This document shows positions 12,944 through 64,000 of a stretch of DNA of 64,000 nt, one piece after another (position 1 is the first letter of the stretch; every line of letters starts with the position of its first letter). The notes below the pieces were generated by a model, which worked only from the letters and a program-made list of their open reading frames with translations, made no database searches and was not told where the DNA came from. The position numbers and the translations under genes are program-made. This stretch comes from Defluviicoccus sp. (lineage in GTDB: Bacteria; Pseudomonadota; Alphaproteobacteria; MPNO01). The DNA is taken from positions 42,267 through 106,266 of the forward strand of contig JAJEHI010000048.1 in assembly GCA_022823775.1 (NCBI GenBank). The letters run 5' to 3'.

Positions 12944-13047
12944 CCGGCCTCCGCGGCGCCGCCGGAAACGTCGAGCGATGTTTGCGGCATTTGTTGCATT
13001 TACGGCACATATACCCCATCTTGCGTACAGATGACAAGGACGCCGCG

Positions 13048-13503
13048 ATGGCGAGAGAGAACGCGACGAGGATGGAACGCGGCCTCCCCAGTGACCGGGA
13101 TGCGGCGCTGGCCGGCCGGGCACGCCGTCGGCTGGCGTCATGGATCGAAGGGACGGATCCTGTGCCCGCACGATTCGGTACCGCGGTGGAGCCCGTCGAA
13201 ATTCCCACCTCCGCGATGCGGCTGCTCAAGGAGATCCTGGATCAGATGGCCGACGGCAACGGTGTCGCGCTGTTGCCGATGCACGCCGAACTGACCACGC
13301 GACAGGCGGCCGAACTCCTGCAAGTGTCGCGGACGCATCTTGTACAGTTGCTCGACGCGGGACGGATCCCCTGCCGAAAGGTGGGAGCGCACCGGAGGGT
13401 CCGCCCCGAGGACATCCTCGCCTACCGCAACGCGACCGAGTCCGGTCGCCGCCAGGCGCTCGACGAAATGACGGCCCGCGATCAGGAACTCGGCCTGCAG
13501 TAG
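13048..13503 (+). CDS. Helix-turn-helix (excisionase/MerR-like HTH) DNA-binding protein, putative antitoxin of the downstream PIN gene
   Basis: The HTH region is ELTTRQAAELLQVSRTHLVQLLDAGRIPCRKVG. A PIN gene follows 4 bp downstream, a known HTH-PIN toxin-antitoxin arrangement. Confidence 0.6.
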   Translation: MARENATRMERGLPSDRDAALAGRARRRLASWIEGTDPVPARFGTAVEPVEIPTSAMRLLKEILDQMADGNGVALLPMHAELTTRQAAELLQVSRTHLVQLLDAGRIPCRKVGAHRRVRPEDILAYRNATESGRRQALDEMTARDQELGLQ

Positions 13504-13506
13504 ACG

Positions 13507-14087
13507 ATGGCCGGCCCCACGGCGTTACTCGACGCCAATGTTCTCTATCCGGCCGGCCTTCGTGATTTCCTGCTTCGGTTGGCGGATCGGCGCTTGTATG
13601 CGCCGCTATGGAGCGCCGACATCCATGCGGAATGGATGCGGAATGGATGCGGAACCTCCTCGCCGATCGGCCCCACCTATCCGCCGATACGCTGGAGCGC
13701 ACACGCGCGGCCATGGACTGGCACTTTCCCGCAGCAGTGGTGACGGGATATGCCGCCCTTGCCGAGATGCTCGATCTACCGGACCCTGGCGATCGCCACG
13801 TACTGGCCGCGGCGATACCGGGGCGCGCGGACGTGATCGTGACTTGGAACCTGCGGCACTTCCCTGCCGACCGTCTCGCGTCCAGCGTCCTCGCGGCACG
13901 CAGCCCCGACGCGTTTATCGCGGGTCTGTTCGAGACCGGTCCCGAAGAGGTCGTGGCGGCCGTGCGCGGGCATCGCGCGGCGCTGAGAAACCCGCCGCGC
14001 TCAGCATCGGATCACTTGACCGCCCTCGAACGCGTCGGGCTGGCGAGGACGGCCGCGCTGCTCCGACCGCACGTGGGCGCCATTTGA
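13507..14087 (+). pseudogene. PIN-domain toxin gene disrupted by a +11 bp frameshift
   Basis: Frame 1 (13507..13743) encodes MAGPTALLDANVLYPAGLRDF...ADIHAEWMRN. The sequence continues only in another frame (13608..14087: ...EWMRNLLADRPHLS...HVLAAAIPGRADVIVTWNLRHF). Removing one copy of the duplicated GCGGAATGGAT restores a single ~190-aa PIN ORF. Confidence 0.65.
13617..13638 (+). repeat. Perfect 11-bp tandem duplication (GCGGAATGGAT x2) that frameshifts the PIN gene
   Basis: The sequence atccatGCGGAATGGATGCGGAATGGATgcggaacc is seen directly. 11 = 2 mod 3, which matches the observed frame change. Confidence 0.8.
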
Positions 14088-14278
14088 TCGGCGCGCGCCC
14101 CGTACGCAGAGGTCCAAGGCTGGATAGCCGCGCCCGCGCCCGGTATGTTCGGAATATTCCCACAGGCGACCGGCCGCCGATGTGCGGACCGTTCCGGTAA
14201 AGTGGAACACTGGCACGGACCGGACCTCGATCGGATGCCGGTCTCCGTATCGCGCCCGCGCAACAGGTGACAGGAACG

Positions 14279-15865
14279 ATGTCGAAGACAGACAGCTTCG
14301 CGGGGACGACGGTCTCCCGCTCTCCGGTTTACGGCACGAGGGGCATGGTGGTCTCCGGCCATTCTCTGGCTTCGCTCGCCGGGCTCCGCACCCTCGAACG
14401 CGGCGGCTCGATGGTGGACGCGATGATTGCCTGCTCCGCCGCGCTCTCGGTGGTGGTGCCGCAGGCGACCTCGCTCGGCGGCGATGCGTTCATCCTCTAT
14501 CACCGGGCGGAGGACGGGCGGACCATCGGCATGAACGCGTCCGGCCACGCGCCCGCAGGCGCGACGCTCGATGTCTACGAGGCGGGAATCCCGCACCGGG
14601 GGCCGCTCGCCTTCAGCGTGCCGGGGATGATCCGGGGCTGGGAGCGGATGCACGAGCGTTACGGCAAGCTCCCCTGGGCCGATCTCTTCGCCGACGCTGC
14701 GGCGCTGGCCGAGGCCCACCCGCTGTCGCGCGTCCTCGCCGGCGCGCTCAACCTCTTCCGCGAGGACGTCGAGGGCGACGCCGGCTGCCGCGACGTCTAC
14801 TACCCGGACGGCAAGCCGCTGCCGGCGGGCGCGATCGTGCGCCAGCCGGCGCTTGCTCGCACGGTGGGTCTGATCGCCGAGCACGGGAGTTCGGTCTTCT
14901 ACGAGGGCGAGATCGCGCAATCTATCGCCGCGTCCGCCCGGGCGCAGGGCGGGGTGGTCGCGGCCGACGACTTCGTCGGTTACGAGCCGGAATGGGTCGA
15001 GCCCGTGGAATCGGGCTACCGCGGGCTCACCATCCGGGTCATGCCGCCCAACTCCTACGGCGTGCTGATGCTGATGCAGCTCAACGCGCTCGACGGCGTG
15101 GACCCGGCGGAATTGAGCGGCGACGAGAGCAGGCGTCTCGCCTACCTGATGCGCGCCCAGCGCGCAGCTTTCGCCGCCGGGCAGAAGCACATCGCCGATC
15201 CGCGCACGAACCCCGCGCCGATCGACCGCCTGCTGGGCGACGAGACGACGGCGGCGCTGCGCGCAGAAGTGATGGGAGCCGCGCAACCCGCGCCCGCCAT
15301 GGCCCATCCCGCCGCCGGCACCTCCTGCATCACGATCGCCGACGGCGAGGGCGATGGGATATCGGTGGTGCAGAGCGTGTTCCACGTCTTCGGCAGCGCG
15401 TTCCTCGACCCCGGCACCGGCATCCTGATGAATAACCGGATGACCGGCTTCAGCATCGATCCGGAGAGCGCCAACGTGCTGGCGCCCAACAAGCGCCCCG
15501 CGCACACCCTCAACCCGGTGGCGGTCCTCGACGGCGACAGGGTTCGCTACCTGCTGACCACGCCGGGCGGGCCGAGCCAGACGCTGTCCCACGTCCAGAT
15601 CCTCAACAACCTGGTCGACCGGGGCATGGAGCTGACGGCGGCCATCGAGGCGCCGCGCTGGTCGATTACCCTGCAGGGCGAGACACTGCTCGACGAAGAG
15701 TTCGACGACGGCGTCGCCGACCGGCTGGCCGACGAAGGCTTCACCGTCAAGCGGGCCGCGGGCGCGGCCTATTTCGGGTCCGCCAAGGTGATCGAGGTCG
15801 CCAAGGACGGCGTGCTGATGGGAGCCGCCGACAGGCGCCGCGAGGCCTTCGCGGTCGGCGCCTGA
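14279..15865 (+). CDS. ggt: Gamma-glutamyltransferase family protein
   Basis: 528 aa. The GGT-family nucleophile region is GTSCITIADGEGDG and the C-terminal small-subunit motifs are present. The stop overlaps the next start (TGATG). Confidence 0.85.
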   Translation: MSKTDSFAGTTVSRSPVYGTRGMVVSGHSLASLAGLRTLERGGSMVDAMIACSAALSVVVPQATSLGGDAFILYHRAEDGRTIGMNASGHAPAGATLDVYEAGIPHRGPLAFSVPGMIRGWERMHERYGKLPWADLFADAAALAEAHPLSRVLAGALNLFREDVEGDAGCRDVYYPDGKPLPAGAIVRQPALARTVGLIAEHGSSVFYEGEIAQSIAASARAQGGVVAADDFVGYEPEWVEPVESGYRGLTIRVMPPNSYGVLMLMQLNALDGVDPAELSGDESRRLAYLMRAQRAAFAAGQKHIADPRTNPAPIDRLLGDETTAALRAEVMGAAQPAPAMAHPAAGTSCITIADGEGDGISVVQSVFHVFGSAFLDPGTGILMNNRMTGFSIDPESANVLAPNKRPAHTLNPVAVLDGDRVRYLLTTPGGPSQTLSHVQILNNLVDRGMELTAAIEAPRWSITLQGETLLDEEFDDGVADRLADEGFTVKRAAGAAYFGSAKVIEVAKDGVLMGAADRRREAFAVGA

Positions 15866-46837: not shown

Positions 46838-48952
46838 TCAATAGTAGTAGCCGCCAACCAGCGCCGGGGCGGGTTCGTCCCGCTCTTCCGGAGACCCGCC
46901 GGTCCGGACCAGCCGGGCCGTGACGATCACCACCAGCTCGAGGTCCTCCGATCGTATCGAGCGATGCCCGAACAGCGGTCCCAGCAACGGGATGTCCTTG
47001 AACACCGGGAGGCCCGCCTCCCGCGTGTCGGACGCGTTGCGGAACAGCCCGCCTATCACGATCGAGTCTCCGTCGCCCACTTCGACCGTCGTCTCCGCGC
47101 GGCGCACGTTGATCACCGGGATATTGACGCCCACCACCTGGACCGCCTGGTTCAGCGACGGCTCCGACACTTCGGGCCTGACCTTCAGCACGATCCTGCC
47201 GGCGTCTATGACCGTGGGGACGAAGTCGAGCAGGACGCCGTATTTCTTGTATTCGAACAGGATGACCCCGTCCTCGAACCCGGTCGGCAGCGGGTATTCG
47301 CCACCCGAGAAGAACGACGCCGCCTCGCCCGACACGGCGGTGAGGTTGGGCCTGGCCAGCACGTTCGCCGAGCCGGCCCTGGCAAGCGCGTCGATCATGC
47401 CCGAGATGCGCGTGTCCTTCGTATGCCTGCCGAAGAAGAGACCGGGGGAGGGCTGACCGTCGACGAGTGACGGAGCGAAGGCGCCGATCGCGCTTCCCGC
47501 GACCGACGGGACGCTCGCCAGCCGGCCGATCCGGAAGCCGAACACGTTGTCGCCCGGGGTCCGGAATGCCTCCCAATTGATCCCGAGGTCCTCGCTGAGC
47601 GAGCGCTGGACCTCGGCGATCTGGACTTCAAGGCTCACCTGCTGCGCGCCGGCCACACGCAGTTCGGTTTCGACGACGGTGTCCTTCGGCAGAGCCGCCG
47701 CCGCGAGCCGGAGGGCGCGTTCGGCGAGAGCGGCGGAGGCGACATCGCCCGACAGCGCTATTCCCCGCGCGACCCGCCTCGCCCGTACGCCGCGCAGATC
47801 GGGCTCTCCGGCCAGGTTCGCACGAACGGGTTCGAGGTCGAGCATGACGGACACGATCCAGTCCCGCACCCGACCGTCCTCTCCGAGCACCGCGACGGAG
47901 GTTCTGCCGACGCTCTTGCCGACGATGTACAGCACGTCGGGCGATAGCAGCTGAACGTCCGCCACCTCGGGCGCCGCCACCAGCAGCGAGGTCGCGCTGG
48001 AATCGAGCCCGAGGCGCCTGCTCTGCCCCAGCGAAAGGGTCATCGTCGCCGGCAGGGGGACGCCCGGCGTTCGGTCCGCGGCCGCCTCCGCCTCCGGGAC
48101 CGGCGGCGCCTCCCGCTCCGTTCCGGGACCCTGCGGGGAGGGCCGTTCCGCAATGCGAAGCAGGGCGCCCGTGGACCCCGGCAGCGCCGCTTCGCGGGCC
48201 GCGGGGCCGTCCCCTTCCCGCGCCGGCAGACGCATCGCGAGGCTCGGATGGACCGCACGCGCCGCGGCCTGGCGCCGCCGCTCCCGCCGCGCTTCCTCGA
48301 TCAGATGCCACAGCGAAGAACCGTCCTCGCCCAGCCAGAAGGACGGATCGTGCCGCGCGTGAACCTCCGCCGCGCTCTCTTCCTTCCCGGCCGCCAGCAG
48401 CATGCGCACGAAATTCGCGGTGATCCCCGGATGGCCCGAAGACAGGCGGAGAGCCCGGCGGTATTCCGCCTCGGCCGTCTCGTAATCGCCTTCGAGGCTG
48501 GCGAGGACGCCGATGCCGTTGGCGACCCAGGCCGCCGAGGGCCCCCGTCCCGCCGATTCGCGCGCGCTCCCGAAGTGCCGCCGCGCGTCGTCCAGCGTGC
48601 CTTGGGCGAGCGCCGTCCGCCCCGCGCCGAGGAGCGCTTCCGCCTTGATGGCCGGCGCCTCCTCCGCCAGCGCCGCGGCCCCGAGGAAATAGTCCTTCGC
48701 GGCCGGCAGGTCGTTGTCGAGGGACGCGATATATGCCAGCCCGAGGAGCGGTTCGGGAGCCTCGTCGAAGCGTTCGGCCAGGGAGCGGTATAGCCTGCGG
48801 GCGACCGACGGCTGGCCCGCGGTAAAGGCGGCGGCCGCGACGGACAGGTTGTTTTCAAGAAGATCCTGGCGGCCGGCGGGATCGTCCGACGACGGGCCGG
48901 TCGCGCATGAGGCGACCGCCGCGACCGAGATGAAAACGGCAGCGGCGCGCAT
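46838..48952 (-). CDS. cpaC: CpaC/RcpA-type secretin fused to an N-terminal TadD-like TPR domain; lipoprotein signal
   Basis: Real start MRAAAVFISVAAVASC at 48952. The first ~270 aa are TPR-like. These are followed by the pilus-formation N-domain (LSLGQSRRLGLDSS...VLYIVGKSVGRTSV) and the secretin core (ARPNLTAVSGEAASFFSGGEYP...FKDIPLLGPLFG). Confidence 0.75.
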   Translation of the reverse strand: MRAAAVFISVAAVASCATGPSSDDPAGRQDLLENNLSVAAAAFTAGQPSVARRLYRSLAERFDEAPEPLLGLAYIASLDNDLPAAKDYFLGAAALAEEAPAIKAEALLGAGRTALAQGTLDDARRHFGSARESAGRGPSAAWVANGIGVLASLEGDYETAEAEYRRALRLSSGHPGITANFVRMLLAAGKEESAAEVHARHDPSFWLGEDGSSLWHLIEEARRERRRQAAARAVHPSLAMRLPAREGDGPAAREAALPGSTGALLRIAERPSPQGPGTEREAPPVPEAEAAADRTPGVPLPATMTLSLGQSRRLGLDSSATSLLVAAPEVADVQLLSPDVLYIVGKSVGRTSVAVLGEDGRVRDWIVSVMLDLEPVRANLAGEPDLRGVRARRVARGIALSGDVASAALAERALRLAAAALPKDTVVETELRVAGAQQVSLEVQIAEVQRSLSEDLGINWEAFRTPGDNVFGFRIGRLASVPSVAGSAIGAFAPSLVDGQPSPGLFFGRHTKDTRISGMIDALARAGSANVLARPNLTAVSGEAASFFSGGEYPLPTGFEDGVILFEYKKYGVLLDFVPTVIDAGRIVLKVRPEVSEPSLNQAVQVVGVNIPVINVRRAETTVEVGDGDSIVIGGLFRNASDTREAGLPVFKDIPLLGPLFGHRSIRSEDLELVVIVTARLVRTGGSPEERDEPAPALVGGYYY

Positions 48953-49254
48953 GCGCCGGACGAGATGTCGACATGGTTGCCGGATCACGAGCATTTCCAA
49001 TCCGGCCCCGTTGTCAGCGAACGAAGCACGACCGCTCCATCTTCCGTCAAGATTTCGAACCCGGGCGAAGAATGAACGCGGTTCCCGAATTCGATCCTAT
49101 CGATCCAGAGACCGCGAACCTGGGTGTATCCCCGCGATCCGGACGCTCGATCCGGCACCGCCGCAACCGGCGAACCCATAAGCGAACTTGGCAGAATATG
49201 CCTAACACGATATGAATTGTGAACAGAAGTGAGATATTTTGTCGCCCTCGCCCC

Positions 49255-49788: not shown

Positions 49789-50919
49789 ATGGCGGCGTCT
49801 TCCAAGGCTCACTATGCGCGCGGGTTCGCGGCCGACGCCCGGACCGAGCGGGCATTGCGCGCCGGACTTGCCGGCCGCGACGCGAAGGTCCAGCGAGGAC
49901 GCCTGGAAATCGCGCTCCGCACTCTGGCGGCCGAGCCCGCCTCCAGTCTGGTGTTCGTCGACCTCGACGGCAATTCGGACCCGGAAACCGCGGCCAGGCG
50001 ACTGACCGAAGTTTGCCCTTTCGAGACTGCGGTGGTCGCGATCGGTTCCACCGATTCGGCGCGGTTCGGCCACGCGCTCCTGCAACAGGGGATGGCGGAC
50101 TATCTGGTCAAGCCGCTGTCGGCCGCGGTCGTGCGCGAGGCGGTCGCCGCCCTCAGCGGGGAGGCGCCCGAGCATCTCTACGCGGGAGACGTCATCGCTT
50201 TCGCGGGAAGCCCCGGCAGCGGCGTCTCCACCCTGGTCGCCGCGGTCGCGCACGCCGCCGCCGCCGACGGCCGCACCGCTTCCGTCGTCGACCTCGACCC
50301 GGTTTGCGGCAAGCTCTCCGCGCGGCTCGGCGTCGAACCCGGGGACGGCCTGCGCCCGCTCCTTGCTTCGATCGGCGCCGGCGCGGCCGATGACCCGGAC
50401 CCTCATATCGACCCCGACAGGATCGACCGAATATCGACGCCGGCGGCTTCCGGCATTTCGCTGATCGCTTACCCGAAGGCCGAGGCGCCGCCGGAAAGCG
50501 CCGACGCGGCGGCGCTCTCCGCCCTCTTCAGGCATCTCGCCAACCGGACCCATCTCGTGCTGGCGACCGGGATGCCGGATCCCGAGACGCAGCTTCTGCT
50601 GATGCGGGACGCCGATGCTCGGGTTCTGGTCTACGAACCGACGATAGCGAGCGTCGGCGCCGTGGTGCGTCGGTTGGCGCGGCTCGGCCCCGACCGGCCC
50701 GCCACGCTGGTCCAGTGCTCCACGCGGGGTCGCCGTTACACGCTGTCCTCCGCCCATGTCCGCTACGCGTTCGGCGACCGGCGCCCGGACGTCGTGCTTC
50801 CCTTCGATCCGGCGCTCCACGCGGCCGCCACCGGCAAGCCATCGGGCCGCCCGGGAAAGGCCTACCGCAAGGCGCTGCGCCAGGCGATAGAGCTGGTCGG
50901 ACAAGATCATCGTTCGTGA
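49789..50919 (+). CDS. cpaE: CpaE/TadZ-family pilus assembly protein (receiver-like N-domain + MinD/ParA-like domain), paralogue 1
   Basis: The receiver-like part is LVFVDLDG...ADYLVKPL. The deviant Walker A, IAFAGSPGSGVSTLVAA, lacks the conserved lysines. Confidence 0.7.
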   Translation: MAASSKAHYARGFAADARTERALRAGLAGRDAKVQRGRLEIALRTLAAEPASSLVFVDLDGNSDPETAARRLTEVCPFETAVVAIGSTDSARFGHALLQQGMADYLVKPLSAAVVREAVAALSGEAPEHLYAGDVIAFAGSPGSGVSTLVAAVAHAAAADGRTASVVDLDPVCGKLSARLGVEPGDGLRPLLASIGAGAADDPDPHIDPDRIDRISTPAASGISLIAYPKAEAPPESADAAALSALFRHLANRTHLVLATGMPDPETQLLLMRDADARVLVYEPTIASVGAVVRRLARLGPDRPATLVQCSTRGRRYTLSSAHVRYAFGDRRPDVVLPFDPALHAAATGKPSGRPGKAYRKALRQAIELVGQDHRS

Positions 50920-51306: not shown

Positions 51307-51849
51307 ATGCGGAGCGGGTGCGTGAACCGGATCGTCAGACATGGCTGGCTTGCAGCGCGGGACTTCTGGCGCGCCCGGCGCGCGGCGGTCGCGCTGGAAA
51401 CGGCGATCGCGGTGCCGGTTCTCCTCTTCGCGTTCGCGGGCCTGATGGAAATCGTGCACTCGGCCTATGTCAGCGACAACATGAACCGCGCCGCCCGCGC
51501 CGCCGCCCGAGCGATCGCGATCGCGCCGGACAGCGCGGCGGGTAGCGGCGCGCTCGACAGCGTCGCCTGCACGGCGATCCGGCGCGAACTCAAGCTGGTC
51601 GAGAGTTTCGACTGCGGCGCGAGCTGGACGCTCACGGTCGACACGGATCTCACTCCCGCCGCCTTGCTGGCCGGCGGAGACGGGGGCGACGGCGAGGCGG
51701 ACGGGGACATGGTGGTCGTGCGGATCGCCTGGAGCCGGGAGCCCTGGGAGATCGGCCAGCTCATCGCCTCGCTCGACGAGGGAGACGGCGAGCCCGACCG
51801 CCGGATCGCGGTCGGCGTCGCCCGCCGGGAACCGGTGGCGGGGAGCTGA
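51307..51849 (+). CDS. tadE: TadE/TadF-like pseudopilin-type protein
   Basis: The N-terminal TadE motif is AAVALETAIAVPVLLFAFAGLMEI; 180 aa. Confidence 0.65.
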   Translation: MRSGCVNRIVRHGWLAARDFWRARRAAVALETAIAVPVLLFAFAGLMEIVHSAYVSDNMNRAARAAARAIAIAPDSAAGSGALDSVACTAIRRELKLVESFDCGASWTLTVDTDLTPAALLAGGDGGDGEADGDMVVVRIAWSREPWEIGQLIASLDEGDGEPDRRIAVGVARREPVAGS

Positions 51850-52682: not shown

Positions 52683-52922
52683 ATGAATACTCGATTTGCA
52701 ACCCGCCTGTTCAGGCGCTTCGCGCGCGACAACAAGGCCGTCTCCGCCCTCGAATACGCCATCCTGGTGGGTGTCATCACCGCCGGCGTCGGCGCAGCCG
52801 TCGCGGCGTTCACGGACCAGATCGACGACATGATCGATCAAATCGCCACCAACGTGACCGCCAACGAGGCCAACATCGGCACCGGTGGCGCCGGCGGTGG
52901 CGGCGGCGACGCCGCCGAGTGA
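52683..52922 (+). CDS. flp: Flp/Fap-family type IVb pilin
   Basis: 79 aa. The Flp motif ...DNKAVSALEYAILVGVITAGVGAAV has G/A before the EY; the C-terminus is a Gly-rich acidic tail TGGAGGGGGDAAE. Confidence 0.75.
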   Translation: MNTRFATRLFRRFARDNKAVSALEYAILVGVITAGVGAAVAAFTDQIDDMIDQIATNVTANEANIGTGGAGGGGGDAAE

Positions 52923-53110: not shown

Positions 53111-54612
53111 ATGACTCTCGACGCTTCTCCGAACGGCCGCGATCGTCCGGCCGGGCCTCCCCCGGAACGCGCGCCCGACTTCGACCTCGATTTCGACGTC
53201 GATTTCGAGGCCCTGCTGCGGGCCGGGCTTCCGGACGATCCGGGCGAGGGCGAGGACGCCACCGCCGCCGACCTGGCGAGCGCTCTCTCCGCCGGCCCCT
53301 TGGACGATCCATCTCCGCCGCCGGCCGATCCGGACCTGCCCGACCTCGCGGACCTTTCCGGCATCGCGGCGGACCTGCCGGGTCCGGGCGCCGCGATCGA
53401 CGCCGGCAGCGATGAGGACGCGGACGACACGGCTTCCGAGTCGACGCCCGAAGGTCCCGCCGCCGCGCTCGCCTTCGCGGCCGATGCGGAGACCGAGAAC
53501 GCCCTGCGCGAGGGTCTGATGCATTTCGAAGGGGCGATGCCGGACTGCGACGATCCCCAGGTTTGGCCGGGCGGCCTGCGAGCGGCCGTCGCGGCGCTCG
53601 CCGACGGGCATTCCTCCGGTCTCGTCATCGTCGATATCGACGGTATCGCCTACCCGTCGGGCGCCATTCACGAGCTTGCCGAGGTCTGCGAGATCGGAAC
53701 CGTCGTCATCGCGGTCGGCTCGAACGGCACCGCCCGTTTCAGCCGCGAAATATTGCTTGCCGGGGTCAGCGACTATCTGGTGAAGCCGCTCACCCCGCAG
53801 ACGGTGAGGGAGGCGACACGCCGCGCGGCCGCGTCCCGGGCGGACGCCCCCGCGAGGGGATGCGTCGCCGGGTTCGCCGGCACCGGCGGCAGCGGCGCGA
53901 CCACCCTGGCGGTGGCGACCGCGCTCCATGCGGCGGAGACCGGCCGTTACGTTTCTGTGCTCGATCTGAACCGGACCGTCCCCGTCGCGGCGCTTCTGCT
54001 CGACGTGCAGCCGGCGGCCGGGCTGGAACAGGTCATCGAGGTCGCCGGCGACGCGCCGCTCGAGGCAAACACGCTGGACGGCGTCCGGGCGCAGCGCTCC
54101 GAGCGGGTATCGATCTACGCCTATCGCTGGTCTCCCGTGCTGCCCCCGGCGCCGTCGGGCCCGGCGCTCGCCCGCCTGCTGGGCGAACTGAAGAGCCGGT
54201 CCCAGCTCGTGCTCGTCGACGGGATCGACGATCCGCCGACCCAATTCGCCCTGCTGTCCGAGGTCGATGTCCCCGTTCTGGTGGCGGAACCGACGGCGGA
54301 CGGCGCAACCCGCGCGGCCCGTATGCTGGAGCTTCTCCCCGGCGACGCCCCGGCCGTCGCGGTGAAGAACCACACGCGCGCGTTCCGGCCGGACGCGGGG
54401 GCGCGGGCGCTCGTCGACGCCGGGATGGAGGCCGCGCCGGACATCCTGGTTCTGTACCTTCCGTCGCTGCCGGAAATCGCCGACCGGGGCTGGCCGCGCG
54501 GCAGGCTTCCCCGCCGCTTGCGCAAGCCCGTCGCGAGCCTTCTCGAACGGATCCTCGCATCGGCCCGCCTCGCCCGTGTCGTCCCGGACGGGCGCCTCGC
54601 GGAGGCGGCGTG

Positions 54613-54613
<1 letters not shown>
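53111..54613 (+). CDS. cpaE: CpaE/TadZ-family protein, paralogue 2, with a ~140-aa acidic/Pro-rich N-terminal extension
   Basis: The receiver-like region is LVIVDIDG...SDYLVKPL. The MinD-like domain has the Walker A-like GFAGTGGSGATTLAVA, again without lysine. Confidence 0.7.
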
Positions 54614-56006
<1,393 letters not shown>

Positions 56007-56010
<4 letters not shown>

Positions 56011-56966
56011 CGCACTTCCTGATCGTCGTGGGCACGGCCCTGGTGGCGACGCTGCCCGGGGTCGCCTTCCTGCTGCTGCTGTGGAACCGCGACCGGCGGT
56101 TGCGCGGCCGGCTTCAGGGCGCGTCCGCTTCGCATATCGACGAGGCGGTCTCCGAGGACGATGCGACCGAGGCCATCGTCTTTCGCTCCTCGGCCGGATC
56201 GCGGTCGGCTCGCCTCCGGCGCGCGATCGAGAGCCGGTATCCCCTGCTCGACGCCCGGCGGGCGGTTCCGCGCGCGGTTCTCGCGGGCGGCGCGGCGGCG
56301 GCCGGCCTGTGGGTTTCGATGTGGTTCCTGAAGATCCCCTCCGGCTGGTGGACGATGCCCCTCGTCGGGTTGGGCGGCGTGGGCGGCATCTGGTACGCGC
56401 TGTCGTGGTTTCACTCGCGGCAGGCGACCGAGTTCACCCGCCAGTTCCCCGAAGTCATCGACCAGATCGTGCGGCTATCCGCGGCGGGGCTGCCCGCGCT
56501 TGAGGCGATCCCTGTCGCCGCCGAAGACGCCCGGGCGCCCGTCAAGCCGGTGCTGAACGCCGTCTGCGACGGGCTTAGCGGCGGGCTCGATCCCGACACC
56601 GCTCTTCGAACTGTCGCCACCCGCGTCCGCCTCGCGGACTTCACCTTGTTCGCCGCGGTGATACTGCTGCAGCGCCGCGCCGGCGGCGGTATCTCCGCCG
56701 CGTTCGCCACCCTCTCCCGCACGCTTCGCGATCGTCGCAACACCGCGCTGAAGGCGCAGACATCCACCGCGCAGACCCGCCTGACCCTTATGGTGCTGTC
56801 CGTGATGCCGGTGGTGATGCTCAGCATCCAGAAGTTCATCTCGCCCCAATCCGCCGCGATCCTCTTCGAGACCGAACGGGGGACGACCCTCCTGCATTGG
56901 GGCGTCGGCCTGATCGTCGCCGGCCTTCTGGTCGCGAAGGCTATCGCTTCGCGCGTCGAGCAATAG
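56007..56966 (+). CDS. tadB: TadB (T2SS-F-domain inner-membrane platform protein)
   Basis: GTG start overlapping the cpaF stop (GTGA); 319 aa with a T2SSF domain. Confidence 0.8.
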
Positions 56967-56983: not shown

Positions 56984-57955
56984 ATGCAGAACGCCTTCAT
57001 ACCGGTCGCCGGACTCGTCCTGGGCGCCGCCTACGTGCTGCTTCTCGCGCCGCTGATTATCCGGGAAACGCGGCGGGCGCAGCAAATGGACAGGCGGTTG
57101 ACCGCGTTGCGCGATTCCCCGTTCGGCTACGCCGCCGGACACGCGGCCCGCGACGGCGGCCGGGGCAAGGCCCTGATCAGGGCGCTCGGCCTGACGGCCA
57201 TGCGTGTGGCGTCGATGCTGGTCCCGATCGGCGCGGCCGAGCGCGAGAAACTCACCCGCATGCTCCGCGCGGGCGGCTTCGGGCAGCACGAAGCGCTCTC
57301 CGTTTTCCTCTCCGCGAAGCTCGGCGGCGCGTTCCTCCTCGCCATCGGCGCCGGGCTCTGGGCGACCTCTTCGGAGACGGTCGGACAGCACGCGTTTCTC
57401 GCCCTGTTCGCCGCGCTGGCGGGCTTCGTGATCGGCGGTGTCATCCCGGAATACGTGCTGCGTGCGCTGGTGGCCCGAAGGCTGCAACGGATGACCGCGG
57501 TCCTGCCCGACGCGCTGGACATGCTGGTGATGTGCCTCGAATCCGGCCTGACGGCGGAACGGGGAATCCTGACGGTCGCCGACACGCTGGCGCCCATCGA
57601 GCCCAATCTCGCCAGGGAGTTCCAGCAGATCGAGGCGGAGCTGCGGGTCGCGTCGGACCGCCGCGCGGCGCTCACCGAGTATTACCGGCGCACGGAGATC
57701 GACGGTCTGCGCGACCTCGTGATGGCGCTCATACAGGGCGACCGGTACGGCACCCCGCTGTCCCAGTCGATGAAGAACATCGCGGCCGACGAACGGATGC
57801 AAAAGGCGGCGCGCATCGCGACCCAGGCCGAGCGCCTGCCGGTCCTGATGACCCTGCCGATGATCATTCTCGTGGTTCCCGGAACCATGCTCCTGGTGGC
57901 GGGCCCCGCCGTTCTGGGCGCGCTTACCGGGCTGGCAAAAATGAGTGGCGGATAG
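56984..57955 (+). CDS. tadC: TadC (T2SS-F-domain inner-membrane platform protein)
   Basis: Start MQNAFIPVAGLVLGAAYVLL; 323 aa with a T2SSF domain. Confidence 0.8.
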   Translation: MQNAFIPVAGLVLGAAYVLLLAPLIIRETRRAQQMDRRLTALRDSPFGYAAGHAARDGGRGKALIRALGLTAMRVASMLVPIGAAEREKLTRMLRAGGFGQHEALSVFLSAKLGGAFLLAIGAGLWATSSETVGQHAFLALFAALAGFVIGGVIPEYVLRALVARRLQRMTAVLPDALDMLVMCLESGLTAERGILTVADTLAPIEPNLAREFQQIEAELRVASDRRAALTEYYRRTEIDGLRDLVMALIQGDRYGTPLSQSMKNIAADERMQKAARIATQAERLPVLMTLPMIILVVPGTMLLVAGPAVLGALTGLAKMSGG

Positions 57956-57956
57956 G

Positions 57957-58943
57957 ATGTACAAGACGCGCGGTCGCTCTTCCGCCGGACGGGCGGTTTC
58001 CCTGCTTGCCACTTTGGCCGCGGGCCTCACGTGGCTCGCCTGCGGCGATCTCCGCGCCGAGGAGCCGATCCTGCCGATCCCCGAAAATGTCGACGTCGAT
58101 CCGGCCAAGGTCGAGCTGGGCCGAAAGCTGTTCCACGACCCGATATTGTCGAAGGACGGCACGATCTCCTGCGCTAGCTGCCACGATCTGGCGGGCGGCG
58201 GCGATGACGGCCGCAAGATTTCGCTCGGCGTCGACGACAAGCCGGGAATGGTCAACTCGCCCACCGTGTTCAACGCGGGCATGAACTTCAAGCAGTTCTG
58301 GGACGGCCGCGCGAGCACGCTCGAGCATCAGATCGACGGTCCGGTGCAAACCGCCTTCGAGATGGGCAGTCTCTGGCCGGACGTCGTCGCCAAGCTCTAC
58401 CGCGACGGCGCCTATCCCAAGCTCTTCAAGAAGAGCTATCCCGACGGGATCAATCGCAAGAACGTCAAAAACGTCATCGCCGAGTTCGTAAGGTCCCTCA
58501 ACACTCCCAACAGCCGCTTCGACCGGTGGCTGAAAGGCGACAAGAACGCTCTCAACGCGCAGGAAAAGCGCGGCTACGCATTGTTCAAGGACTATGGCTG
58601 CTCGTCGTGCCACCAGGGCGCGAACGTCGGCGGGAACATGTTCCAGGTGTTCGGCGTCCTGAACGACTACTTCAAGAAACGCGGCAACATCACGGAAGCC
58701 GATCTGGGCCGCTACAACATCACCGGAAACGAAGAAGACCGGCACGCCTTCAAGGTTCCCAGCCTGCGGATGGCGGCGATGACGGCACCCTATCTGCATG
58801 ACGGAAACGCGGCCACGCTCCGCGACGCCGTCGACGCGATGTTCGAATTTCAACTGGGGCGCGAAGCCCCCGACAAGGACAAGGAAGCCATCGTGGCGTT
58901 CATCGAGACGCTGGTGGGCGAATCCAAGGAGCTATCGAAATGA
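57957..58943 (+). CDS. ccpA: Di-haem cytochrome c peroxidase (CcpA/MauG family), periplasmic
   Basis: Two CxxCH haem motifs (CASCHD, CSSCHQG), a signal peptide, and the conserved FKVPSLRMAAMTAPYLHDG. The track begins at a GTG at 57945; the ATG at 57957 is preferred. Confidence 0.85.
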   Translation: MYKTRGRSSAGRAVSLLATLAAGLTWLACGDLRAEEPILPIPENVDVDPAKVELGRKLFHDPILSKDGTISCASCHDLAGGGDDGRKISLGVDDKPGMVNSPTVFNAGMNFKQFWDGRASTLEHQIDGPVQTAFEMGSLWPDVVAKLYRDGAYPKLFKKSYPDGINRKNVKNVIAEFVRSLNTPNSRFDRWLKGDKNALNAQEKRGYALFKDYGCSSCHQGANVGGNMFQVFGVLNDYFKKRGNITEADLGRYNITGNEEDRHAFKVPSLRMAAMTAPYLHDGNAATLRDAVDAMFEFQLGREAPDKDKEAIVAFIETLVGESKELSK

Positions 58944-60733
58944 GGTCTGGCGCAGTCATTCTCGGCATTGCCGTCTCCGCCGTCCTGCTGGCCGTCGCGG
59001 GCGGTCTTTATGTGCTGGCGGGCAATAACAGCGGAGACGGTTATCGCAAGGCGATCGATCTCGTGCGGCAGATCCAGCTGCTGTCGTCGGAATGGAGCAT
59101 GGAAGTCACGCGCGTGAAATCCGATCAGTTCGCCGATTTCGACTCGCTGGCCGCCTTCCTGCCGCGCATGGCGCGGCTGAAGGACGAGCTTGCCGACACG
59201 GCCCAGCGCATCCCCCAACTTCCCGACCGGATCGCCAGCGACATGCAGGCCTATCTCAACGCGATCGAAGCGAAGGAAGAGCGCATAGAACGCTTCAAGA
59301 CGGGCTACGCCGTGGTGCGCAACTCCAACCGCTACCTGCCGCTGGCCGCGACCAACGTCCTGCAGCAGGCGCAGAACTCGAGGGACGACGCGCTGGTCCG
59401 GAATATTTCGAGCCTGATCCGGGATGTGAACCTCTATCTCGCCACGCCGACGGACACGTCCCAGTCCCGGCTGACCGCCGAGATCAAGAAGCTCCGCGAA
59501 TCCAGCGTCTCCTATCCGCCTCCGCTCGCCAACGCGCTGGCCAATCTGTTCTCCCACGCCGAGGTGCTTGTGGCCAAGCAGGGGCCGACGGAGGAGCTGT
59601 TCAAGAGGGCCACGTCCGGCGAAGTCTCCGACCTGACGGAGCAGCTGAGCAGCAATCTGCAGTTCGAGCTCGGCAAGAAGGTGCTCCTCGCGACCTATTA
59701 CGACCGGGGCATTCTCGTGGTGTTCGCCGCGCTGATCCTGTTCTGGATCCTGCTCGCGCTGCAGCAGCGGATTCGCGGCGGCTCCGCCGTGACCCGGGTC
59801 GCTTCCCGCCCCTCGGCGATCGAGATCGCACCCGCGCCCGCCGGCGCCGGGGAGGCCGTCGTCGCGGCGGAGGAGACGCATCCGGCGCCGGTGCGGCCCG
59901 CGCCCGTCGAGGCGGAAGCCATCCGTCTGCCCGACGAACCCGAATCCCTGCCCGTCGCGGCGGCGGCTTCGTCCCCGGAACCGAGCGCCGAATCCATCCT
60001 GATGCAAGGGTTCGTCGTCAAATGCGTGGCCGGAATCATGGCCGCCTCGGCCGACGAAATCGCCGGCCGCATGGAGTATCTGCGCCGAACCCAGAACAGG
60101 ATCCAGGACGCCTTCCGAAACAGCGACGGTATCGCGGAAACGTCCGATGGAACGGATGTCGACGAAGAGATCGAAACGATCTCCGCCATCGCGCTGAGCG
60201 TCCGCCAGAGGATGAACGGCATCGCCGATCTCGCGAAGCGGCTCGACTCCTATTCCAACGGTCACGCCAACGGGGCGGACCGCGGAATGATCGACCTCAA
60301 CGCCTGTGTCGAGAACGTCATCGAGACCGCCGGTGCCGCGAACCGGGCGACGGTCGTGAGGAACCTGGGCGACATCCCGGAGATATTCGCCTCCAGGACC
60401 GAATTTCAGCTGCTCCTGTCGGAACTGATCGACAACTCGATGGTCGCGGTCGAGGGACTCGACGACAGAAAGGGCATCATCAAGATCGATACCGCGCGGA
60501 AGAACGACGAAATCCTGATCACCGTCATCGACAATGGCGACGGTATCGCCCCCGACAAGCGCGCGAACATCTTCAAGCCGTTCTACACGTCCCGCGACGG
60601 GGCGATGGGCATCGGCCTGACCCTCGCCGGTCACCTGGTCAAGAAATACGAGGGGGTCATCAAGATCAATTCGTTGCCCGGCCAGGGGACGGTGGCGCGC
60701 GTCACGCTGCCGGCCGGCGTGTCGGGGGCGTAG
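58940..60733 (+). CDS. Membrane sensor histidine-kinase-like protein (two TM helices, periplasmic domain, C-terminal HATPase_c); no canonical H-box recognised
   Basis: N-box LLLSELIDNSMVA, G1 DNGDGI, F FKPFYT, G2 GMGIGL. TM1 AVILGIAVSAVLLAVAGGLYV and TM2 ILVVFAALILFWILLAL. The ATG overlaps the ccp stop. Confidence 0.65.
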   Translation: MRSGAVILGIAVSAVLLAVAGGLYVLAGNNSGDGYRKAIDLVRQIQLLSSEWSMEVTRVKSDQFADFDSLAAFLPRMARLKDELADTAQRIPQLPDRIASDMQAYLNAIEAKEERIERFKTGYAVVRNSNRYLPLAATNVLQQAQNSRDDALVRNISSLIRDVNLYLATPTDTSQSRLTAEIKKLRESSVSYPPPLANALANLFSHAEVLVAKQGPTEELFKRATSGEVSDLTEQLSSNLQFELGKKVLLATYYDRGILVVFAALILFWILLALQQRIRGGSAVTRVASRPSAIEIAPAPAGAGEAVVAAEETHPAPVRPAPVEAEAIRLPDEPESLPVAAAASSPEPSAESILMQGFVVKCVAGIMAASADEIAGRMEYLRRTQNRIQDAFRNSDGIAETSDGTDVDEEIETISAIALSVRQRMNGIADLAKRLDSYSNGHANGADRGMIDLNACVENVIETAGAANRATVVRNLGDIPEIFASRTEFQLLLSELIDNSMVAVEGLDDRKGIIKIDTARKNDEILITVIDNGDGIAPDKRANIFKPFYTSRDGAMGIGLTLAGHLVKKYEGVIKINSLPGQGTVARVTLPAGVSGA

Positions 60734-60857
60734 CGAGACCGGAAGCGGGCGGGGAGCGGGATCGCCCCGACCCGTCGATAGACGCGTTACCAGCAACCTT
60801 TCAGCGAGTCGGAACCATGGAAAACCGTTACGACAACCCAATCCCGAGGGCGTTTCG

Positions 60858-62177
60858 ATGACTTCGCGGGGAGATCGAAACAGCAGCCTGCGGATGCAGC
60901 TGGTGTCCAACGCGCTCCTGAGCGTCGCGCTGCCGATCCTGATCGTCGGCGGATTGACCTTCTTTCTGCTCGCGTATCATCTCGACATCATCGAGACGAG
61001 CTTCGCGCGGAGCCGGGATGCGGTAACCAACGACATCGCGCGGACCGACCTCGTGTCGCGGGCGACAACCACCGCGAGCCAGATCGATACTTTCCTGGTC
61101 AGCCGTATCACCGAAGCCAAGGCCTGGGCGACGTCGAAGGCCGTCGTCGAGGCCGCCCGGTCGGCCGGCGCCAGGCACGCGGCCGAGGGGTTCGTCAAGA
61201 CCCCCGCCGCCGAGGTCGAAAGGAGATTCCGCATCGAAAAGAGCCTGGGCCTCTGGCCGGAAGCCGATTCCTTCCTGCGCCAGCAGGTCGCGGCGTCGCC
61301 TTACTTCGCGGAACTCTTCTTTACCGACAGCAACGGTTTCAACGTCGCGCTCACCAACCCCACCAGCGATTTCATCCAGTCCGACGAGGAATGGTGGAAG
61401 CGAGCCTGGAGCCAGGGGATTTCCGTGGGCGAGGTCGAGTACGACGACTCCGCCGGGGTCTGGTCCGTGGAAATCTCGGTCCGGATAGACAACCCGACCG
61501 GGAAAAAGGCGCTCGGCGTCATGAAGACGGTGCTCGCCATCGAGCCCATTCAGAACATCGCCGACAGGGCGGCCCAGTCCGTTCCGGGCGGCCGCGTCCA
61601 GGTCGCGACGGGGCGCGGCGCGCTGATCGCCGAGACGGCCTCCGGCCACGCCCGGGAACGAATTATGAATGGCGAAGTCAACGTGCAGGAACAGGGCGAA
61701 CCGTCGGTGCGGGCCGGTTTCGGCGGTGAACAGACGGGGTTCGCCACCGACCGGGAATGGCTCACGGGGTACGCCCGGACCGGCGGCCGCGAGACCTATG
61801 CTTCCGCCGTCGGCCGGTTCGCGGGTTTCGACTGGATCGTGATCGTCCAGAAACCGATCGCCGCCATCCACGAGCCGATCACGGCGCTTCGCGGTATCGA
61901 GGACGCGCTGCGCGATTGGCGCCTCATTCTCGCGCTGGCCCTGGGCGGCATGGCGTTGCTGAGTTCGGTGCTGGCGATTTCCCTCGCCGTCGGGGCCGCC
62001 CGGCGTTACGCGAACGCCCTGGGCGCGGTCACCGAGATGGCCGAACGTTCGGCCCGGGGCGAACGGGTCAGTCCCGCGGTCATCCGCAACCCCCAGGAGA
62101 TCGTTCGCGTGAACGACGCCGTCCATCGCCTGGTTCAGGTGTTCGCCGGCGTCCGGGAGCGACCGCGAGCGACGTAG
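60858..62177 (+). CDS. Cache-domain sensor with two TM helices and a C-terminal HAMP domain, lacking any output domain
   Basis: TM1 LLSVALPILIVGGLTFFLLA, a ~300-aa periplasmic Cache-like region, TM2 LILALALGGMALLSSVLAISLAV, then HAMP-like NALGAVTEMAERSARGERVSPAVIRNPQEIVRVNDAVHRLVQVF, followed by the stop. Confidence 0.6.
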   Translation: MTSRGDRNSSLRMQLVSNALLSVALPILIVGGLTFFLLAYHLDIIETSFARSRDAVTNDIARTDLVSRATTTASQIDTFLVSRITEAKAWATSKAVVEAARSAGARHAAEGFVKTPAAEVERRFRIEKSLGLWPEADSFLRQQVAASPYFAELFFTDSNGFNVALTNPTSDFIQSDEEWWKRAWSQGISVGEVEYDDSAGVWSVEISVRIDNPTGKKALGVMKTVLAIEPIQNIADRAAQSVPGGRVQVATGRGALIAETASGHARERIMNGEVNVQEQGEPSVRAGFGGEQTGFATDREWLTGYARTGGRETYASAVGRFAGFDWIVIVQKPIAAIHEPITALRGIEDALRDWRLILALALGGMALLSSVLAISLAVGAARRYANALGAVTEMAERSARGERVSPAVIRNPQEIVRVNDAVHRLVQVFAGVRERPRAT

Positions 62178-62262: not shown

Positions 62263-62745
62263 GTGGAGAGCCGTTCGATGGCGAACGCAACCGCATGGAT
62301 CGTCTGGCTGGCGGGGTGGGCCGCATGCGGCCTGTTCGTCGCCGCCGCGGTCAGCGACCTTCGGACCCGCCAGGTGTCGAACGCGATACCCCTGCTGCTG
62401 CTCGGGCTTTTCGCGGTGTACGCGGCGGCCGGCGCGGTCCGGCCCGCAACGTCGCTCTGGCAGCATCTGGCGATAGGCGCCGTACTGCTCGCCGCCGGTT
62501 TCGCGCTCTACACGACCGGTCGCTTCGGCGGGGCCGATGCGAAGCTGATCGCCGTGGCGGGGTTGTGGGCCGGTCCGAACGACCTGGCGGCGTTCCTGTT
62601 CGTTCTGGGCGGGTGCGCTTTGTTGCTGAGCCTGTATGCCTTGCTGCCTCACGCGGGGGCGCGGCGTCTGCGGTCGGAACTTCCCTTCGCCCTGGCGATC
62701 GCGCCGCCGAGCCTGGCGGTCATCGTCCCGCGCGCGCTGCCATGA
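62263..62745 (+). CDS. cpaA: Prepilin peptidase CpaA/TadV (A24 family)
   Basis: 160 aa polytopic membrane protein; the catalytic Asp contexts are AAVSDLRTRQVSN and GGADAKL. Confidence 0.75.
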   Translation: MESRSMANATAWIVWLAGWAACGLFVAAAVSDLRTRQVSNAIPLLLLGLFAVYAAAGAVRPATSLWQHLAIGAVLLAAGFALYTTGRFGGADAKLIAVAGLWAGPNDLAAFLFVLGGCALLLSLYALLPHAGARRLRSELPFALAIAPPSLAVIVPRALP

Positions 62746-62783: not shown

Positions 62784-64000
62784 ATGCAAAGATACCGTAC
62801 GGTTATCGTCCTGCTTCTCCTGGTGGCCGTGCCGCTTGCCGCGGCGGTGGTCGCGGCGCGCTTCTTCATGCCCGGAACCGGTGCCGAGCCGGGTCGGGCG
62901 GAAGCGAAGCAGGTGGCTCCCGGCCCCGCCGAGAAGCCGAAGATGCGCAAGATCTTCGTGGCCGCCCGCAGGCTTCCGGTGGGCACGCTGTTGACCGATG
63001 ACGATCTGACGACGCTCGATCTGCCGGAAAATGAGATCAGGCGCGCCCATCTCGCGATGGACGGCCCGAAGGCGGTCGACGGGCTGCGCGGCCACGCGGT
63101 GCGCGAGCCCGTCGCCGCGGGTGCGCCGCTCGTCCGGTCGGCGGTCGTCGGACCGGGCCAGCGGGGCTTCCTCGCGGCCGTTCTCAAGCCCGGCACGCGC
63201 GCGGTGACGATCCGGCTCGGAAAGGGGGCGAGACATGCCGGCCTGATCGATCCGGGCGATCGGGTGGACGTGATTCTCACCGCCAAGCTGCGGCTCGAAG
63301 GTCGGGTGCAGACGGTGTTCGCGCGGACCATCCTGGAGGACGTGCGCGTCGTCGCCGTCGACCGCCAAGTCGGGGCGAGCACCGAAACGCCCGAGGGCGG
63401 CAAGCGGGTCAAGCGGACCGAAATCCTCACCGCGACGCTGGAGGTCTCGCCGGCCCAGGCGGATCGTCTGGCGCTGGGCGAACACGAGGGCGAGCTCTCG
63501 CTCGCGGTGCGCTCCCTCATCGGTGCCGTGGAGCGGGTGCGAAACGAAGCGGTGGACCTCCAGGAGCTGTTGTCCCTGACCAAGGAGGCGCCGCCCTCCT
63601 CCGAGCCGGCCGCGCCCGCCCCGCCGCCGCCGATCGTCGAGGAGCCCGCGACACGGGCGGTTCTCGCGGCGGCCCGGGCGCTGCCCGTGGGGACGCTTCT
63701 CACGGGCGAGGACTTCGCCGAAATCGAGATCGCGGCGGAAGACGTCCGGCGCGAGCATGTCGTCGCGGCCGACGGCGCGGCGATCGAATCGTTGCGCGGA
63801 TATGCCGTCCGCGAGCCGGTCGGTGCCGGAGCGGCTCTCACCTGGTCCTCCGTCGTCGGACCCGGTCAGAGAGGCTTTCTCGCGGCCGTTCTCGATCCCG
63901 GCACCCGCGCGGTGACGATCCAGCTCGGAAAAGGAACGAGGCATGCCGGCCTGATCGATCCGGGCGATCGCGTGGACGTGATCCTGACCGCGAAGCTGGC
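62784..64000 (+). CDS. cpaB: CpaB/RcpC Flp-pilus assembly protein, 3'-truncated by window edge, containing an internal tandem duplication of the SAF-RcpC module
   Basis: Manual translation of frame 0 from the ATG at 62784 gives MQRYRTVIVLLLLVAVPLAAAVVAARFF..., with the block KIFVAARRLPVGTLLT...VVGPGQRGFLAAVLKPGTRAVTIRLGKGARHAGLIDPGDRVDVILTAKL occurring twice. It is not in the ORF track because there is no stop in the window. Confidence 0.75.
   Translation, partial: MQRYRTVIVLLLLVAVPLAAAVVAARFFMPGTGAEPGRAEAKQVAPGPAEKPKMRKIFVAARRLPVGTLLTDDDLTTLDLPENEIRRAHLAMDGPKAVDGLRGHAVREPVAAGAPLVRSAVVGPGQRGFLAAVLKPGTRAVTIRLGKGARHAGLIDPGDRVDVILTAKLRLEGRVQTVFARTILEDVRVVAVDRQVGASTETPEGGKRVKRTEILTATLEVSPAQADRLALGEHEGELSLAVRSLIGAVERVRNEAVDLQELLSLTKEAPPSSEPAAPAPPPPIVEEPATRAVLAAARALPVGTLLTGEDFAEIEIAAEDVRREHVVAADGAAIESLRGYAVREPVGAGAALTWSSVVGPGQRGFLAAVLDPGTRAVTIQLGKGTRHAGLIDPGDRVDVILTAKL
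63060..64000 (+). repeat. Intragenic tandem duplication, period 708 bp (236 codons), within cpaB; last ~150 bp of each copy about 85-90% identical at the nucleotide level
   Basis: Seen directly: gtcgtcggaccgggccagcggggcttcctcgcggccgttctcaagcccggcacgcgcgcggtgacgatccggctcggaaagggggcgagacatgccggcctgatcgatccgggcgatcgggtggacgtgattctcaccgccaagctg at ~63144 against a near-identical run at ~63852. Confidence 0.7.

Follow-up and report, generated by a model that had tools for sequence, protein, structure and literature searches.

The window analyzed here is a 64,000-nucleotide (nt) stretch of DNA from Defluviicoccus sp. (contig JAJEHI010000048.1 of assembly GCA_022823775.1, positions 42,267 to 106,266 of the forward strand), and its 3' end holds the beginning of a cpaB/rcpC gene, which is predicted to encode a subunit of the Tad (Flp) pilus machinery with the SAF-RcpC module present twice in tandem. 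The open reading frame starts with an ATG at 62784 on the plus strand, with a GGGAGA upstream, and continues without a stop for 405 codons up to the window end. That the gene runs past this end, as a first-pass annotation of the sequence had stated, was confirmed by full-length orthologs of 584 to 589 codons. The features of the gene are listed by window coordinate, with the evidence for each in parentheses (pLDDT, predicted local distance difference test score; HMM, hidden Markov model).

62784 to 64000, plus strand: cpaB/rcpC with two modules, the 5' 405 codons, open at the window end (open reading frame, Pfam, NCBIfam, and orthologs)
62787 to 62867, plus strand: N-terminal inner-membrane helix, residues 2 to 28, one per chain (AlphaFold2 helix at residues 2 to 28, hydrophobic sequence)
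62868 to 62942, plus strand: L1 linker, residues 29 to 53 (25 residues) (low pLDDT at residues 29 to 44; equal length in single- and double-module proteins)
62943 to 63146, plus strand: module 1 D1 (SAF domain), residues 54 to 121 (Pfam SAF at residues 58 to 120; module HMM envelope)
63147 to 63518, plus strand: module 1 D2 (RcpC domain), residues 122 to 245 (Pfam RcpC at residues 128 to 243; block conservation)
63552 to 63578, plus strand: module 1 L3 helix motif VDLQELLSL, the presumed counterpart of RcpC α7 LSLDQLL (motif comparison with 9gzr, PMC12307814)
63582 to 63650, plus strand: Pro-rich inter-module linker, residues 267 to 289 (sequence; pLDDT below 50 over residues 247 to 278)
63651 to 63854, plus strand: module 2 D1 (SAF domain), residues 290 to 357 (Pfam, module HMM, and tblastn)
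63855 to 63998, plus strand: module 2 D2 (RcpC domain), first 48 residues (Pfam; complete in the orthologs P0001 and P0002)

The N-terminal helix has the sequence MQRYRTVIVLLLLVAVPLAAAVVAARFF, with hydrophobic residues at positions 7 to 28. Module 1 is complete, with both SAF and RcpC (residues 54 to 266, 62943 to 63581), and of module 2, which begins at residue 290 (63651), the first 116 residues lie inside the window. A tandem, in-frame duplication of the SAF-RcpC module with a spacing of 708 bp (236 codons) had been proposed in the first-pass annotation, and three analyses agreed with it: Pfam matched each domain twice; a repeat search returned an in-frame direct repeat (63016 to 63290 and 63724 to 63998, 76% nt identity) at exactly that spacing; and tblastn of module 1 against the 64-kb window found exactly two copies, at 62943 to 63581 and 63684 to 63998. 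The 708-nt unit exceeds the longest period of Tandem Repeats Finder (500) and was accordingly not reported by it. The Pro-rich linker between the modules was likewise seen, as the stretch EAPPSSEPAAPAPPPP at residues 268 to 283. Within module 1 D2 lies a family-wide core, VVGPGQRGF...DPGDRVDVILTAKL (63148 to 63290).

Assignment to the CpaB/RcpC family came from several searches. The NCBIfam CpaB equivalog TIGR03177 scored 262.6 bits against a cut-off of 71 and matched in two stretches; Pfam SAF (53.8 bits) and RcpC (130.7 bits) each matched in two stretches, the second RcpC match being cut by the window end, and in a full-length ortholog RcpC scored 173.6 bits over two stretches. Among PDB entries, RcpC (9gzr) was the only relative found by sequence (phmmer E = 1.2e-8, identity of ∼28%), and its chains were also the top Foldseek matches of the AlphaFold2 model (9gzr_B, E = 3e-13; 9gzr_A, E = 4.9e-12). 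That model, built from a 21-sequence alignment, had a pLDDT of 68.9 and a predicted template modeling score (pTM) of 0.60, with both modules confidently folded and the linkers disordered. The C-terminal β-hairpin, the family's docking element for the secretin or an adaptor, lies past the window end and was thus read from orthologs: in P0001 and P0002, each 97% identical to the window protein, it has the sequence KTVRVIRGSELTRQTF with predicted strands at residues 533 to 548, and it is kept in all 21 aligned two-module proteins. By its sequence, then, the gene product is assigned to the CpaB/RcpC family, as a predicted Tad-pilus alignment-complex subunit of a tad locus in which the ring module occurs twice. 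NCBI names such doubled proteins “Flp pilus assembly protein CpaB.” The flagellar P-ring chaperone FlgA, which has SAF plus β-clip domains and gives weak matches to the SAF region, was considered and rejected: TIGR03170 scored 31.4 bits against a cut-off of 54.65 and PF13144 (ChapFlgA) scored 23.4 against 23.8, both below threshold, Foldseek matches to FlgA (3frn and 3tee) had E values of only ∼0.03 to 0.07, the genomic context is that of a pilus, and FlgA has neither a membrane anchor nor a hairpin.

It was only in 2025 that RcpC/CpaB was identified as the alignment complex of Tad pili. A defining property of the family is self-assembly into a dodecameric ring (pore of ∼5 nm). In the cryo-electron microscopy structure of Pseudomonas aeruginosa RcpC (9gzr; Evans et al. 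2025, PMC12307814), the domain order is transmembrane (TM) helix, L1, D1, D2, L3, and β-hairpin. The D2 domains are arranged in a C12 ring and the D1 domains in six dimers, giving an overall symmetry of C6 in which protomers alternate between two conformations; the amphipathic helix α7 of L3 packs on the D2 of the neighboring protomer and is needed for oligomerization, and the hairpin contacts the secretin (PMC12307814). The inter-D2 hydrogen bond of RcpC joins R130 and D153. These align with R139 and D162 of module 1 and with R375 and D398 of module 2, four residues that are invariant in the 21 doubled proteins. Each module is also followed by a hydrophobic-x-L-x-x-L-L motif (VDLQELL and VNLRQLL), whose equivalence to α7 is by motif and not by structure. 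By these alignments, both modules keep counterparts of the residues that hold the RcpC D2 ring together. There is a single TM helix and a single hairpin (KTVRVIRG..LT.Q.F) per chain in the 21 aligned doubles. The protein resembles P. aeruginosa RcpC in domain order, fold match, the R130/D153 contact, the α7-like motif, and its tad locus; it differs in that RcpC has one D1-D2-L3 unit (303 amino acids [aa]) whereas proteins of the window type have two in series (∼585 aa), at ∼28% identity.

The doubled architecture recurred among homologs, as the comparison of CpaB lengths in related genomes showed. Two modules were present in 36 of the 120 best homologs, most of them full length (514 to 590 aa) and four of them truncated fragments, at 45 to 97% identity to the window protein. 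These doubled homologs came from ENA, NCBI, JGI, and Logan assemblies of different samples. A scan of GTDB species genomes placed the doubled gene on contigs of 1.9 to 5.3 Mb, including the 4.79-Mb chromosome OZ220750, in Defluviicoccus, Thalassobaculaceae, and other alphaproteobacterial metagenome-assembled genomes (MAGs). The two-module architecture is a conserved trait of one clade, whose members are uncultured Alpha- and Gammaproteobacteria.

The duplication is old in the lineage of the window. In neighbor-joining trees of individual modules, the module 1s and the module 2s of the close relatives P0001 to P0013 grouped apart, so the duplication predates that clade. Exact module 1 and module 2 clades, when tested, received 0 of 100 bootstrap replicates, with modules of P0122, P0012, and some single-module proteins nesting among them, and only the qualitative separation was used. 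In relatives of 65 to 83% identity, each of the two modules has its own ortholog. Within the window protein the two modules are 62% identical overall. The SAF part is 47% identical, with nonsynonymous and synonymous divergences (dN and dS) of 0.43 and 1.1, and the 50-codon D2 core is 92% identical (dN of 0.04 and dS of 0.39). Across the clade, dN/dS of module 2 was ∼0.1 in the core and 0.3 elsewhere, and both modules are under purifying selection.

The first-pass annotation had described the 3' ends of the two copies as nearly identical in DNA and had read this as recent duplication or ongoing gene conversion. The first statement was too strong: 126 of 143 nt match (88%), with 90 of the last 100, and identity falls to 56 to 64% in the 5' parts of the modules. 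No stretch of the whole CpaB family is better conserved than the D2 core VVGPGQRGFLAAVL.PGTRAVTI.LG.G.RHAGLIDPGDRVDVILTA; in its most conserved 25-column block, module 2 and the single-module protein P0061 share 96% identity, and randomly paired single-module proteins average 76 to 78%. Core dS between module 1 of this gene and module 2 of other genomes was just as low (0.50 to 0.56), and GC content at third codon positions was 85%. A test for conversion tracts, in which the longest matching run over polymorphic sites was compared with site permutations in the manner of GENECONV, was negative for the 97% ortholog L001 (p = 0.90). For these reasons the high 3'-end identity is attributed mainly to purifying selection and codon bias, with at most an old conversion of the core.

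A recent duplication or continuing conversion in the window genome does draw on some observations: core dS (0.39 to 0.48) is below that of the flanks (0.95 to 1.3) in the same pair, identical residues use the same codon in 74% of cases in the core versus 51 to 67% across genomes, and recombination between modules is clear in relatives. The low cross-genome core dS, however, points to a core that is slow or codon constrained, and the 62% protein identity between modules, the dS of ∼1.1 in SAF, and the separate orthologs of each module speak for age. The run test is blunt. Elsewhere it returned p values of ∼0.003 to 0.05 in some genomes, yet cross-genome control pairs gave 0.004 to 0.012; being confounded by the conserved core, it was not relied on. 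We regard recent origin or ongoing conversion as very unlikely, and that part of the earlier interpretation as largely refuted. An assembly expansion of a single real module, a concern also raised at first pass, is next to impossible, since the copies differ at 24% of nt in the 275-nt repeat and more toward their 5' ends and are thus not one copy assembled twice, and the same paralog-specific differences recur in independent NCBI, ENA, and Logan assemblies and on the contigs of 1.9 to 5.3 Mb, even if ∼700-nt tandem repeats are prone to misassembly and one relative with four identical units (P0121) might be such a case.

Module number varied widely among relatives. HMMER, run against all 1.84 billion representatives, returned 8,651 CpaB-like proteins, and modules were counted in the best 150 (50%-identity representatives), a list that is skewed to multi-module proteins because the query has two modules. 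Among these best 150 of 8,651, one module was found in 96 representatives, two in 31, three in 5, four in 2, five in 1, and seven in 1. A single conserved locus type carries one module (L010 to L034 and L041), two (L001 to L006, L009, and L014), or three (L007), and one MAG contains both a double (L004) and a single (L010). The locus type was established for the one-, two-, and three-module genes; the relatives with four, five, and seven modules, some close and some more distant, are known as proteins. In PLSDB plasmids, tblastn found 146 records with CpaB, none covering at least 80% of the query and all single-module. Literature searches on tandem, duplicated, or multi-module CpaB/RcpC returned nothing relevant; the family and the protein name are known, and for the variation from one to seven modules no match was seen in the literature searched.

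Several relatives retain traces of how such arrays change size. The two modules of P0015 (unit of 699 nt) are 98% identical in DNA over 707 nt, and P0015 forms a clade with P0017 and the single-module P0043 (100% bootstrap), which points to a duplication independent of that in the window. P0121 has four identical units of 233 aa, with boundaries in TEVEPVVAAAPPEK, a short sequence found on either side of the module. In the three-module L007 the middle module is chimeric: its 5' 240 nt are 85 to 88% identical to module 3 and its 3' 300 nt are 78 to 92% identical to module 1, with the switch point inside the conserved D2 core. The two linkers share an exact repeat of 73 nt. The L007 chimera bears the signature of unequal crossing-over. 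Arrays in this family grow by unequal recombination in the conserved D2 core or in the linkers, and some are very young. The conserved core is likely a recombination substrate in relatives, without recent recombination in the window gene.

The cpaB gene belongs to a full Tad (Flp) locus, with a prepilin peptidase, CpaF, TadB and TadC, a secretin, and a Flp pilin candidate. The other genes of the locus are as follows.

46838 to 49000, minus strand: secretin (CpaC/RcpA type) with an N-terminal TPR extension (Pfam Secretin, 2.6e-40; T2SS-T3SS_pil_N, 3e-16; TPR)
49789 to 50919, plus strand: TadZ/CpaE-like ATPase, 376 aa (weak P-loop and CpaE_hom matches)
51307 to 51849, plus strand: TadE-like pseudopilin (Pfam TadE, E = 7e-6)
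52683 to 52922, plus strand: Flp-type pilin candidate (…AVSALEYAILVGVI…) (motif; tblastn relatives in related loci)
53111 to 54613, plus strand: second TadZ/CpaE-like protein, 500 aa (tblastn to called genes of L001; weak P-loop and CpaE-homolog matches)
54613 to 56010, plus strand: CpaF ATPase (tblastn to L001 genes with T2SSE/T2SSF Pfam matches)
56007 to 56966, plus strand: TadB (tblastn to L001 genes with T2SSE/T2SSF Pfam matches)
56984 to 57955, plus strand: TadC (tblastn to L001 genes with T2SSE/T2SSF Pfam matches)
57945 to 62177, plus strand: insert encoding a di-heme cytochrome c peroxidase/MauG-like protein, a DAHL-domain histidine kinase, and a dCache protein (Pfam; synteny)
62263 to 62745, plus strand: cpaA-type prepilin peptidase (A24), directly 5' of cpaB (Pfam Peptidase_A24, E = 6e-15; syntenic in all related loci)

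The gene at 52683 to 52922 had no HMM matches, and we take it to be a candidate Flp pilin from a sequence motif of the Flp pilin type. Two paralogous TadZ/CpaE-like proteins are encoded in this one locus, and the 500-aa protein has an acidic, Pro-rich, low-complexity N-terminal region of ∼130 aa. In the secretin, a TPR region of ∼250 aa is fused N-terminally to pil_N and Secretin (35 to 66% identity in related loci); the window locus differs in this extension from that of P. aeruginosa, and the region may be a built-in TadD/pilotin-like module. The insert between tadC and cpaA is syntenic across Alpha- and Gammaproteobacterial MAGs, with 75 to 88% identity of the peroxidase, and is an unusual, conserved sensory/redox insert in a tad operon.

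On the 3' side of cpaB, orthologous contigs encode a ∼650-aa protein and then a TPR protein that carries a peptidoglycan-binding SPOR domain at its C terminus and ends the locus (11796 to 13748 and 13901 to 15100, respectively, in L001). The ∼650-aa gene, which lies just past the window end and is also present in L003 to L034, L041, and L042, takes the usual place of cpaC in nearly all loci of the type, whether single- or double-module; its product had no match in Pfam, NCBIfam, or PDB sequences and no obvious signal peptide or membrane helix. The single-module CpaB proteins of this locus type (P0034 of L041 and those of L010 to L034) have one module and 316 to 347 aa, are 55 to 85% identical to module 1, and share the gene order TadZ, CpaF, TadB, TadC, peroxidase, DAHL kinase, dCache, CpaA, CpaB, 650-aa protein, and TPR/SPOR protein with the doubled loci.

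What the second module does was considered from chain topology and module number. With, presumably, the N terminus of the chain anchored in the inner membrane and the C terminus meeting the secretin, two coaxial rings in series are the simplest arrangement. In such an assembly 12 chains would contribute 24 modules, and the stacked rings would lengthen the closed periplasmic conduit of the pilus. That the two modules form two stacked, coaxial RcpC-like rings along the pilus axis has, in our judgment, a little better than an even chance. The earlier suggestion that a doubled subunit alters the spacing between secretin and platform is plausible and is essentially this mechanism. A precedent for a periplasm spanned by several coaxial rings is found in Caulobacter, where a mid-periplasmic ring of CpaI connects CpaB with CpaC; CpaI is absent from many Tad systems (PMC13170226, PMC12637624). 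By analogy, a second CpaB ring may take the bridging role of this adaptor. The extra ring of Caulobacter, however, is a separate protein related to secretin N domains, whereas the candidate here is built into the CpaB chain as a second module. The TPR/SPOR protein may anchor the machine to the cell wall, a point that would bear on how a longer periplasmic conduit is fitted in.

Several points weigh against stacked rings. The linkers of doubled proteins are not shortened (medians of 53 versus 53 aa for L1 and 30 versus 30 aa for the tail linker), so that an extra ring must fit the same periplasm, and in P. aeruginosa the RcpA:RcpC model already spans 21 of ∼24 nm (PMC12307814). The visible partner genes are unchanged with module number, which gives no sign of coadaptation to a changed geometry. 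The five- and seven-module proteins are only 36 to 37% identical to the window protein, and their assembly may differ; the end of module 2 and the hairpin are visible in orthologs only, outside the window; and stacking itself is inferred from chain topology and copy number.

The main rival to stacking is a single-ring pseudo-dodecamer, in which six chains would supply 12 modules, with module 1 and module 2 as fixed, alternating A and B conformers that form D1 heterodimers. The RcpC dodecamer is C6 and not C12, with six D1 dimers in alternating conformations, and a D2 ring that is symmetric while its D1 pairs are not would fit the 92% identity of the D2 cores beside the 47% identity of the D1 domains, as well as the difference in the predicted β2 strand (LTTLDLP versus FAEIEIA). 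The pTM of 0.60, reached despite 28% disordered residues, hints at modules packed together in the monomer model. D2 core conservation is family wide, however, and includes single-module proteins, so it does not discriminate; inter-module gaps can be as short as 4 to 5 residues (P0020, P0028, and P0036); and only 6 anchors and 6 hairpins would face a 13- to 14-mer secretin. Moreover, arrays of five and seven modules are unable to tile a 12-module ring, and because 5 and 7 do not divide 12, stacking is favored over one shared ring. We consider the pseudo-dodecamer unlikely, though a serious contender.

A second module that is a mere passenger, tolerated as a flexible spacer or decaying and with no role in the ring, is improbable. 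Single-module genes do occur in the same locus type (L010 and L041), in one case in the same MAG as a double, and the partners do not change with module number. Module 2 is nevertheless under purifying selection, it keeps the invariant ring-contact residues and an L3 helix motif of its own, and the architecture persists down to 45% identity.

The stacked-ring reading can be extended to the family. In this extension, CpaB would be a ring stack of variable copy number, in which each D1-D2-L3 unit forms one dodecameric ring, the number of units (one to seven in proteins from metagenomes) sets the length of the sealed conduit, and arrays are resized by unequal crossing-over in the D2 core or in repeated linkers. 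We offer it tentatively, as a possibility about which we have more doubt than confidence. If stacking is correct, it would allow fast retuning of a trans-envelope machine to the envelope of a lineage.

Species vary in how the inner-membrane platform is connected to the secretin, and the details are under active study. Between them, the syntenic loci with one, two, and three modules and the relatives having up to seven offer a natural test of whether the ring acts as a periplasmic spacer or ruler and of whether gene fusion can fix the C6 (A/B) asymmetry of the dodecamer. A component of a trans-envelope machine is seen here evolving through tandem-repeat dynamics. The case is a domain duplication in a known protein, yet it provides a natural copy-number series for a recently solved structure. 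For annotation, “CpaB” calls of 500 to 1,700 aa are real and not misassemblies.

Two further genes of the family were noted. In L008 (10001 to 11638; MAG CBDAUF010000001), the doubled cpaB open reading frame stops after 74 codons, and tblastn still aligns 560 residues; this interruption is either an assembly frameshift error or a pseudogene, and P0018 (448 aa) is its truncated call. P0183 (1,768 aa; members P0264 and P0265 on Mb-scale contigs) has full modules at both ends of the chain and a third between them, with about a dozen tandem copies of an SAF-sized segment alone (∼70 aa each), a different kind of repeat expansion in the CpaB family.

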